Assembly (NCBI GenBank): GCA_905213875.1
Contig: CAJMJN010000002.1
Location: 4,363 to 68,362 of the forward strand
Length of the DNA: 64,000 bases
Source of the DNA: an uncultured Clostridium sp.
GTDB lineage: Bacteria > Bacillota > Clostridia > TANB77 > CAG-508
Reading direction: 5' to 3'
Position numbers and translations under genes: made by a program. Positions within the stretch are counted from its first letter, which is position 1. Each line of letters begins with the position of its first letter. The notes beneath the pieces are model-generated. The model did no database searches. It worked only from the letters and a program-made list of their open reading frames with translations, and was not told the DNA's origin. This document shows, piece after piece, positions 14,398 through 15,217 of this stretch.

Positions 14398-14517
14398 TTG
14401 AAATTACATAAAAATCGTAGTATAATGTTGACAGATAAAAAAAGAAATGTTACAATTGTGTTACAAAAAAAACAACTTTGTTAAAAATATTGACAATATA
14501 TTAAAATAATATATAAT
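14398..14517 (+). promoter_or_regulatory. Three tandem near-consensus sigma-A promoters
   Basis: TTGAAA-17-TATAAT (14398-14426), TTGACA-17-TACAAT (14428-14456) and TTGACA-16-TATAAT (14490-14517), all reading rightwards into an ORF-free stretch. Confidence 0.6.
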
Positions 14518-14523
14518 ATACAA

Positions 14524-14748
14524 AAGAAAATGATAAATAAGTAATACTTAATTATCGTTTATTTTTTATCAAATTGTTTGCAACATGCATATTACATATG
14601 TTAATTGCATATATTATAAAAAGGTTATTTGAGGATAGAACAGGCAGCTATCGCGCCAGAGATGGTCTTAAAAGAGATGTTGGGGTACGCCGTCCCACCA
14701 ATTAGCCGAACAACAGAAAGGAGATACTGCAGTATCTCCTAATTTTTA
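14524..14748 (+). ncRNA. Candidate non-coding RNA with a GC-rich 3' domain (unclassified)
   Basis: No ORF longer than 15 codons and no RBS. GC-rich block at 14640-14715, unlike its surroundings. Ends in the hairpin aggagatactgcagtatctcct plus a T-run (14719-14748), which overlaps the stop codon of the convergent gene. Confidence 0.45.
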
Positions 14749-15158
14749 GTATAAGGAATAAATTTTCCTTTTCTAACAGAATAATTTAATTTATCTTCTG
14801 TTATTGGAAATATAGTTCTAAATAATAAATTTCCATTTCCTTTTATTATTTGTACACCGATTAAAGAAATATCATCTAATTTTTTTATATATTGTATATT
14901 TCCATTTTTATGCAATCCAATATAATCGGGTTGTGATAGTATCAGTGGTATTGAATTTATAGCTTGGTTATAAGCAGAAGGACTAGAATATTCATCTTTA
15001 TGTTTTTTACAATGTTCTTCAATTCTTGTAGACCAAATATTAATATTTTGAGGATTTAAATCTAAATCTAGTAAAGCTATTACTTCTTTAGATAATTCAC
15101 CAATTTTTATATTTCTGCTTTTTCCTTTACTTATTTTATTTATATCAAAATTTTTCAA
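14739..15158 (-). CDS. Small nuclease-fold protein, tentatively PBECR (Barnase-EndoU-ColE5/D-RelE-like) family
   Basis: 139-aa ORF with RBS AAGGAG. ...RIEEHCKKHKDEY...IPLILSQPDYIG... resembles the H..KH / PD.I signature recalled for PBECR domains. The family assignment is unverified. Confidence 0.45.
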   Translation of the reverse strand: MKNFDINKISKGKSRNIKIGELSKEVIALLDLDLNPQNINIWSTRIEEHCKKHKDEYSSPSAYNQAINSIPLILSQPDYIGLHKNGNIQYIKKLDDISLIGVQIIKGNGNLLFRTIFPITEDKLNYSVRKGKFIPYTKN

Positions 15159-15188
15159 AATAAAACTCCTTTTGCAATATTAAAATTT

Positions 15189-15217
15189 ATTATACTATTA
15201 ACTAGAAAAATTTGCAA
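15189..15217 (-). promoter_or_regulatory. Promoter of the nuclease-fold gene
   Basis: On the minus strand: TTGCAA (15217-15212), 17-nt spacer, TATAAT (15194-15189). Confidence 0.55.

Follow-up and report, generated by a model that had tools for sequence, protein, structure and literature searches.

Skipping-rope RNA and a PBECR3-family predicted endoribonuclease gene form a conserved cassette of mobile DNA: a candidate type III-like RNA/RNase system

We analyzed a 64,000-nucleotide stretch of DNA from an uncultured Clostridium sp. (contig CAJMJN010000002.1; hereafter, the window), in which an original prediction had placed a strongly promoted non-coding transcript, convergent with a small nuclease-like gene, at positions 14398-15217. 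We identified the non-coding part as a skipping-rope RNA and the gene as a member of the PBECR3 family of predicted endoribonucleases; these identities of the parts are virtually certain. Comparison of genomes shows that the RNA and the nuclease-fold gene make up a real and conserved pair, which is kept whatever the relative orientation of its members and is predicted to be functional. As to its function, we tentatively favor, as falling just short of probable, a type III-like RNA/RNase cassette that acts in trans, for toxin-antitoxin function or for abortive infection. The elements of the cassette in the window are listed below, with close relatives designated L001-L009.

14398-14426, + strand: promoter-like site 1, TTGAAA-17-TATAAT, 11/12 consensus match, kept in L003-L006
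14428-14456, + strand: promoter-like site 2, TTGACA-17-TACAAT with an upstream TG, 11/12 consensus match
14490-14517, + strand: promoter-like site 3, TTGACA-16-TATAAT, 12/12 consensus match
14528-14569, + strand: AT-rich leader hairpin and T-run directly 3' of promoter-like site 3, predicted in minimum-free-energy and centroid folds
14575-14623, + strand: conserved 49-nt box directly 5' of the skipping-rope RNA, from the alignment of relatives
14624-14706, + strand: skipping-rope RNA (Rfam RF02924), with outer stem P1 around hairpins P2, P3 and P4, from cmscan
14719-14748, both strands: bidirectional intrinsic terminator, consisting of hairpin AGGAGATACTGCAGTATCTCCT at 14719-14740 (9-bp stem, 4-nt loop) and a T-run
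14739-15158, - strand: predicted endoribonuclease of the PBECR3 family (BECR fold), 139 aa, starting at TTG and preceded at 7 nt by a GGAG ribosome-binding site
15189-15217, - strand: promoter-like site of the nuclease gene, TTGCAA-17-TATAAT, 10/12 consensus match, inside the segment 14397-15233 that is homologous between relatives

Co-occurrence of the RNA and the protein

The protein-based sample includes nine close relatives (L001-L009), five plasmid homologues and nine diverse chromosomal homologues, that is 23 loci, plus the window. A skipping-rope RNA was found beside the protein gene, within ~215 nt, in all 23 sampled loci and in the window (24/24), and these loci span Clostridia, Bacilli and Mycoplasmatota, on chromosomes as well as on plasmids. 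The nine close relatives, all from metagenome-assembled genomes of Clostridia and 68-86% identical in protein sequence, possess a convergent RNA 36-63 nt past the stop codon; in the window, the PBECR gene is likewise convergent and lies 32 nt from the RNA. The five plasmid homologues, which are encoded on Bacillus subtilis pTA1060 (protein WP_010890193), a B. velezensis plasmid, Enterococcus faecalis p.P4B.1, Butyrivibrio hungatei pNP144 and a Mycoplasmatota plasmid, are only 22-36% identical, and each has the RNA within 30-75 nt. The RNA is also present 38-213 nt downstream of all nine diverse chromosomal homologues (in Bacillus, Lysinibacillus, Sporolactobacillus, Vallitalea, Desulforamulus and others). 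The solo relatives of the window protein are proteins of 130-145 aa found on plasmids, islands and prophages.

At the DNA level, a blastn comparison of the window with L001-L009 shows homology only at positions 14397-15233, which contain the promoters, the RNA, the gene and the gene promoter. Because the homology stops at the cassette borders and the flanks differ, the mobile conserved unit is a 0.8-kb two-gene cassette. Thus, the RNA and nuclease gene hold up as the pair that had been proposed, with nearly the same borders (14398-15217) as proposed. A conserved protein partner was sought beside the diverse homologues and none was found, the upstream genes varying from locus to locus.

Several other elements were observed near some of the copies. 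An HTH_36-type protein of ~280-305 aa is encoded directly upstream of the PBECR gene on Bacillus and Enterococcus plasmids (L010, 2051-2968; L011, 2466-3347) and in L134 (1108-1944). The Bacillus version shares 29% identity with that of Enterococcus (E 3e-22), and no such gene is present in the window. This protein could have a regulatory function or act in replication, or it could be a third component of the system. On pTA1060-type plasmids, the skipping-rope promoter has a Bacillus-plasmid RNA (RF01691) just past it, at 3580-3635 in L010 (pTA1060) and L013, and a lactis-plasmid RNA (RF01742) was found on the Enterococcus plasmid (L011, 1288-1395).

The relative orientation of the two members varies between lineages. 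Among the matches listed, there are 57 pairs, of which 15 are convergent, 41 are co-directional with the open reading frame (ORF) first, and one has the RNA first. The convergent layout is characteristic of the window clade and the Bacillus plasmids, and the co-directional layout with the ORF first of most other lineages; the Mycoplasmatota plasmid (L014) has the order promoter-RNA-terminator-gene, as in toxIN. Because the RNA-gene orientation varies, antisense pairing is not the mechanism of the family.

This observation bears on the originally drawn analogy with type I systems such as par (Fst/RNA II) and bsrG/SR4, in which a convergent small RNA (sRNA) would pair with the 3' end of the nuclease mRNA via the shared terminator and repress it. 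The likeness is real within the window clade and, as to the convergent layout with a shared bidirectional terminator, within the Bacillus plasmids, and the location on a mobile element is another common feature in the window clade. However, the 41 co-directional pairs and the one pair with the RNA upstream have no antisense relation despite possessing the same RNA core, and the possible transcript overlap in the window amounts to just the palindromic terminator (~30-40 nt). Furthermore, the type I toxins are hydrophobic membrane peptides of <60 aa, whereas the window protein is a 139-aa soluble nuclease fold, and conservation in the RNA concerns a multi-stem junction with covariation, not base complementarity to the mRNA. 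The type I analogy therefore could not be sustained, and we regard such a mechanism as highly improbable.

The skipping-rope RNA

The match of the window RNA to RF02924 scores 64 bits (E 4.5e-13), compared to a curated gathering score of 36.7 bits, and covers the full length of the model (1-80 of 80). The GC-rich domain of the transcript had originally not been matched to any riboswitch or ribozyme class; judged by this match, it represents the known, functionally unsolved skipping-rope RNA. An alignment of 30 homologues, one of them from the window, has 94.8% of its cells paired, while shuffles reach 74.8% and slid controls 30-51%. Compensatory changes occur at 15 of the 20 base pairs. In a candidate loop-loop pseudoknot, the GGC of the P2 loop would pair with a GCC or GUC of the P4 loop (~14643-14645 with ~14690-14692 in the window; alignment columns 21-23 with 77-79). 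The three pairs of this pseudoknot have 96.6% of cells paired and show one double compensatory change (GCC with GGC in L131). Two single-stranded junction motifs, GAGG and GAGAUG, are invariant.

Conservation of the RNA region is seen in its base pairs and not in codons. As had been predicted, no credible ORF was found across it, the only frames being two with TTG starts that encode 43 and 37 aa. A small peptide after the invariant GAGAUG was considered as a candidate and rejected: its length and sequence vary (7 aa in pTA1060, 21 aa in the window), the GAG abuts the AUG, and base pairs of the region have changed in a compensatory way.

The 134 RNAs among the matches listed occur in two forms. 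The long form has the P3 hairpin followed by GGUCUUAAAA, whereas the short form has CCCAUCGUUAGG and lacks P3. In a re-count with 11 window-type sequences corrected, the long form was assigned to ~37 of 57 PBECR-linked RNAs versus 17 of 77 other RNAs among the matches listed, which are a phylogenetically biased sample. A strict rule that would link RNA subtype to partner was rejected, and only a trend is observed.

The terminator hairpin starts 12 nt past the RNA end. With its T-run on the + strand and its T-rich tail on the - strand, it scores as terminator-like in both directions and is common to the RNA and the nuclease gene. The TAG stop codon of the 139-aa ORF (14739-14741) overlaps this hairpin, which confirms what had been predicted for the convergent gene. 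Among the matches listed, a terminator-like hairpin follows 88 of the 134 skipping-rope RNAs.

In the passages of Weinberg et al. 2017 (NAR 45:10811, PMC5737381) that deal with it, the skipping-rope RNA is described as highly conserved and followed by Rho-independent terminators, as not self-cleaving in the authors' assays, and as tied to a nearby protein gene in either orientation. No functional hypothesis is given in these passages, a possible relationship is suggested between DUF3800 genes and the skipping-rope-associated genes, and the domain of the partner is not named there in the main text. The window copy agrees with this description in the full-length model match, the terminator and the specific protein gene alongside; nothing structural differs, and its own features are the ~100-nt leader and the three tandem promoters. 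The DUF3800-I and drum motifs, as presented in the corresponding passages, are similar in being conserved, terminator-followed RNAs that are tied to one protein family in any orientation, but their RNAs and proteins are different from skipping-rope and PBECR. As both the RNA family and the presence of an associated protein gene nearby have already been published, the locus is another member and not a new class. A DUF3800 gene was also observed directly beside the PBECR/skipping-rope pair in Lysinibacillus (L127, 841-1602, - strand), echoing the remark of Weinberg et al.

The structure of the RNA is relevant to one alternative explanation, by which the RNA would serve the nuclease as a positive cofactor, either activating or guiding it, the ribonucleoprotein being the effector and the RNA its scaffold or specificity element. 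The GAGG and GAGAUG motifs together with the loop-loop contact suggest a precise tertiary fold, and the obligate co-occurrence and the independent strong predicted promoters of the RNA are also compatible with a cofactor. However, the conserved RNA core has no evident variable guide segment, the orphan RNAs of phages described below would be hard to explain, and we know of no BECR RNase that needs an RNA cofactor. We consider this alternative quite improbable.

The PBECR3-family protein

The resemblance of the 139-aa protein to PBECR nucleases, originally noticed from the sequence alone, was substantiated by a Pfam search. The PBECR3 profile (PF18812) matches with E 5.7e-19 and 68.6 bits, while its gathering cut-off is 30 bits, and the match aligns residues 18-125 with positions 2-114 of 115. 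A second match, to PBECR2, remains below its cut-off (23.8 vs 27.1 bits). The AlphaFold2 model (94 representatives) has a pLDDT of 93.8 and a pTM of 0.88 and contains helices followed by four consecutive strands (79-119). In BFVD, it matches predicted structures of phage domains, namely of the "nuclease", the MuF-type minor-capsid and the polyvalent-protein kind, at E 1e-5 to 7e-4 and TM 0.61-0.65. Matches to solved structures (PDB) are weak, the best having E 0.018, and all of the top ones are RelE, HigB or contact-dependent inhibition (CDI) toxins; a sequence search of the PDB with the window protein gave a chance-level match only.

Five positions are conserved among 94 relatives: H49 (82/94), H53 (92/94), K92 (90/94), R/K114 (79/94) and T/S115 (92/94). 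The window protein retains all of them, including H53 and T115. According to Iyer et al. 2017 (PMC5512222), the PBECR active site consists of a His from the N-terminal helix together with a C-terminal Thr/Ser. Because the conserved H53 and T/S115 correspond to this definition, the predicted active site is intact. Thus, profile and structural model both show the window protein to be a PBECR3-family, BECR-fold protein of predicted RNase type with a putatively functional active site.

The original prediction noted no protein antitoxin next to the gene, and this was upheld. The 49-aa ORF 15155-15304 (- strand), which overlaps the nuclease start, was evaluated as a type II antitoxin and rejected because the promoter of the nuclease gene falls within it and most of its length is beyond the conserved cassette. 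A tblastn search with the protein against the phage GenBank collection found no match, and no viral loci were confirmed for three distant PBECR representatives.

Promoters and upstream region of the RNA

The three tandem near-consensus promoters that had been proposed at 14398-14517 are present there, matching the consensus at 11, 11 and 12 of 12 positions. The 64-kb window contains six sites of at least 11/12 on either strand, and three of the six are inside these 120 nt. Dinucleotide shuffles, with both strands counted, yield a mean of 5.6 such sites per 64 kb, and weak promoter-like sites in the region are not above chance (28 vs 27 in shuffles). The clustering of strong sites at 14398-14517 is thus more than expected by chance. 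The tandem layout is kept in L003-L006, whose proteins are 71-75% identical to the window protein, and the same TGTTACAAT promoter (site 2) was found in L002-L006.

Two further elements separate the promoters from the RNA. The hairpin at 14528-14569 has a GATAA...TTATC stem with a variable interior and a T-run after it, is terminator-like on both strands, and keeps its position in L003-L006. A role as attenuator is conceivable, or as insulator that would stop transcripts reading through from the nuclease gene. The 49-nt box contains two TGCATAT copies ~20 nt apart and a -10-like hexamer, TATATT, at 14610-14615, which is ~7-8 nt before the first G of the P1 stem and has no -35 element. Relatives have TACAAT, TAAAAT or TATAAT at this position, with a fixed distance of 6-8 nt to P1. 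No compensatory changes were found when a covarying hairpin was sought in the box in the alignment of homologues. The box may function as a proximal promoter or as an operator, or it may be transcribed as a leader, and the hexamer makes a proximal transcription start near G14623/14624 possible. At ~100 nt, the leader of the window RNA is unusually long; across homologues, the 5' leaders between promoter and P1 range from ~10 to ~100 nt.

Partner dependence of the RNA and its promoter

An RNA-based sample was obtained by scanning for the core pattern of the motif, which covered at least 111 phage or prophage contigs; all 15 non-PBECR matches that were re-tested pass the Rfam threshold. Among the matches listed, a PBECR-family ORF accompanies the RNA in 34 of 111 phage contigs, always within 23-245 nt, and the remaining 77 RNAs are without the protein. 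The dependence is one-way: in the sampled loci the protein is never found without the RNA, and the RNA is often found without the protein.

The two groups of RNAs also differ in their promoters. An own promoter of at least 10/12 within 140 nt upstream is present for 49 of 57 PBECR-linked RNAs versus 5 of 77 unlinked RNAs, with 7 of 134 in the antisense control (all among the matches listed). The promoter status of the RNA therefore tracks the PBECR partner.

Proposed mechanism

On the type III-like reading that we tentatively favor, the RNA would act in trans at the RNA-protein level and not by antisense pairing, since the orientation is free. An abundant, structured RNA antitoxin would bind and neutralize the RNase, in a type III-like manner comparable to AbiF/RCd22. 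The RNase may process the RNA from its 5' leader, as in ToxIN, and the variable leaders leave room for such processing. When RNA synthesis stops, either by loss of the element or by phage-induced transcription shut-off, the RNase would be freed and would cleave cellular or phage RNA, resulting in addiction and/or abortive infection. It can be speculated that the GAGG and GAGAUG junction motifs are recognition or pseudo-substrate elements.

The role of antitoxin is assigned to the RNA because the protein never occurs without it, the RNA alone is possible, and there is no protein antitoxin. The RNA promoters are also stronger matches (11, 11 and 12/12) than that of the nuclease gene (10/12), which in addition has a TTG start. 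The presence of the cassettes on plasmids, prophages and tRNA/tmRNA islands points to a toxin-antitoxin or defence module. All this suggests that the RNA keeps the enzyme in check. A more general proposal is that skipping-rope RNAs constitute a new class of RNA antitoxins, in which a single-copy, pseudoknotted four-helix junction would neutralize solo PBECR2/3 RNases, and the orphan phage copies would be anti-defence decoys or a shared module of several effectors. We consider this proposal possible, but rather doubtful.

A number of observations weigh against the type III-like reading. To begin with, one-way dependence is equally expected for a dedicated RNA processing or binding protein. In such a dedicated ribonucleoprotein, the RNA would be autonomous in the biology of the phage, plasmid or island, and the PBECR protein would be its non-toxic, RNA-specific partner that, for instance, trims the 5' leader or stabilizes the RNA. 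One-way dependence is indeed the pattern of an enzyme dedicated to one substrate, leaders of ~10-100 nt would need trimming, and inactive PBECR domains probably act by RNA binding (PMC5512222). On the other hand, the active-site residues are conserved, the characterized BECR-fold proteins of conflict systems are toxins, and the patchy distribution of the cassette on mobile DNA is typical of toxin-antitoxin and defence modules. Besides, the RNA works without PBECR in most phages, so a helper is evidently unnecessary. We rate the dedicated partner as unlikely, although it deserves serious consideration.

Further adverse points concern the genes that neighbor the RNA in place of PBECR. The non-PBECR RNAs are usually located directly 3' of another gene on the same strand, mostly without an own promoter. 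In L061, two ~45-nt cptI-like repeats (~4945-5070), a terminator and a CptN-family type III toxin gene (5085-5564; NCBIfam NF047359, E 1.2e-31) are followed by a skipping-rope RNA (5557-5627), whose P1 stem overlaps the cptN stop codon, and then by a terminator and an integrase gene; L056, L064, L067 and L089 are similar. The CptN toxin beside the skipping-rope RNA thus already has its own cptI repeats. An AbiD/Abi_2 gene (PADLOC E 1.8e-86, Pfam E 1.2e-43) ends 11 nt before the RNA in L053 (4636-4708), L068 (9960-10032) and L086 (2340-2419), and the gene for a retron-type reverse transcriptase ends 31 nt before it in L100 (3913-3983); the AbiD- and reverse transcriptase-linked RNAs all pass the Rfam threshold. 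Because the RNA core is found 3' of unrelated genes, the RNA has, or also has, a role that is independent of PBECR. In addition, the window protein has no match to PADLOC or NCBIfam models, and, given the single-copy RNA and the absence of a ToxN fold, the cassette is not a member of any established type III family.

The phage copies also include a family of ~58-kb phages (L016, L018, L035, L043, L044, L119 and ~25 more), in which the RNA and a convergent DUF7841 gene (212 aa, ~80 nt from the RNA) are fixed and the gene upstream of the RNA varies, encoding a 185-aa unannotated, a Bro-N, an 80-aa or a 137-aa protein. The 185-aa protein and DUF7841 were assessed as hidden PBECR relatives and rejected (hhalign probability <1%). 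FuFi-1 (RF02986), another orphan, terminator-followed motif from the 2017 screen, was observed on the same phage contigs (L056, 8078-8308; L061, 1922-2152).

These copies are the main ground for another explanation, in which mobile DNA would carry the RNA as an element in its own right, for example as a structure linked to 3' ends or terminators, as a regulatory RNA of phages or as a decoy against defence. The RNA would tend to settle in hot spots of accessory or defence genes, and PBECR would be its neighbor by shared location. The positions directly 3' of CptIN, AbiD, retron-type reverse transcriptase, Bro-N and unknown genes, mostly promoter-less, are in line with this explanation, as are the exchange of the upstream gene in the ~58-kb phages, which keep the RNA and DUF7841, and the frequent integrase or tRNA/tmRNA neighbors. 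Nevertheless, co-occurrence in 24 of 24 loci within ~215 nt, with proteins down to 22% identity and in several classes, is not coincidence; conservation between relatives is limited to the RNA and the gene, and the RNA promoter status switches with the presence of PBECR. Autonomy of the RNA with mere co-location is, in our view, improbable.

Island and window context

The original prediction placed the cassette on a mobile island, and this placement is corroborated by a 15-bp direct repeat of the tRNA-Leu 3' end. The repeats bound a ~6.8-kb island in which the cassette is the last (distal) element. The features of the island are as follows.

8643-8725: tRNA-Leu, with the repeat partner (8713-8727) at its 3' end
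8814-9610, - strand: tyrosine-integrase gene, split into two ORFs
9879-11243, + strand: transposase gene, broken into three ORFs
13903-14253, - strand: TnpV, from Pfam
15500-15514, + strand: attR-like 15-bp direct repeat ACCATCGGTACCAAA, repeating the tRNA-Leu 3' end at 8713-8727

The island also carries genes for a metallophosphoesterase and a DUF6664 protein. With its split integrase and broken transposase, it looks degenerate. Related cassettes were observed ~700 nt from a tmRNA gene in L001 (1-127) and ~100 nt downstream of a tRNA gene, on the strand of the RNA, in L007 (tRNA 3645-3718); both sites are typical integration hot spots.

Elsewhere in the window, we found a full-length OLE (ornate large extremophilic) RNA at 37020-37638 (+ strand, 328 bits), preceded by a promoter-like site at 36998 that is one of the six sites of at least 11/12, and a T-box leader at 31929-32150 (+ strand, 106.6 bits).

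Comparison with known systems

The type III systems ToxIN, CptIN and TenpIN are similar to the cassette in combining an endoRNase-type protein with a non-coding RNA that has strong predicted promoters, in having no protein antitoxin, and in their occurrence on plasmids and phages. However, in these systems RNA repeats of 34-45 nt, arranged in tandem upstream of the toxin gene, make up the antitoxin, whereas the window RNA is a single-copy, ~80-nt four-helix junction that is convergent with the gene, and skipping-rope RNAs are usually downstream or convergent, with an own promoter. The type III toxins have the ToxN/AbiQ/CptN fold, while the window protein has the BECR fold.

The nearest functional precedent is AbiF/RCd22 of Clostridioides difficile (bioRxiv 10.1101/2025.04.15.648962), in which the RNA neutralizes the Abi protein via a stable RNA-protein complex. 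Both systems place a structured RNA motif of the same 2017 screen beside an effector on a mobile element, but the abiF hairpins are a motif different from skipping-rope, and Abi_2 is a protein family different from PBECR.

The window protein has the same Pfam match, fold and active-site residues as the PBECR3/PBECR2 domains (PF18812/PF18810; PMC5512222). In contrast to these, it is a solo protein and not a domain of a virion-packaged polyvalent protein, and it is obligately paired with a structured RNA. A link between PBECR and a structured RNA is not mentioned in the PBECR literature that we searched. Within the literature searched overall, the solo PBECR2/3 RNase partner, the one-way dependence, the partner-dependent promoter and the RNAs beside CptIN, AbiD and reverse transcriptase genes seem to be new.

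Biological significance

An orphan motif from the 2017 Breaker-lab screen gains a concrete hypothesis, namely that it is an RNA antitoxin for a BECR RNase, and B. subtilis plasmid pTA1060 provides a tractable model. If the hypothesis is refuted, the locus is another catalogued RNA copy next to a hypothetical gene. If it is true, the cassette would represent a new type III-like toxin-antitoxin or abortive-infection family on Bacillota plasmids, prophages and tRNA/tmRNA islands, RNA antitoxins would extend beyond repeat arrays and ToxN-fold toxins, and the solo PBECR proteins would gain a function.

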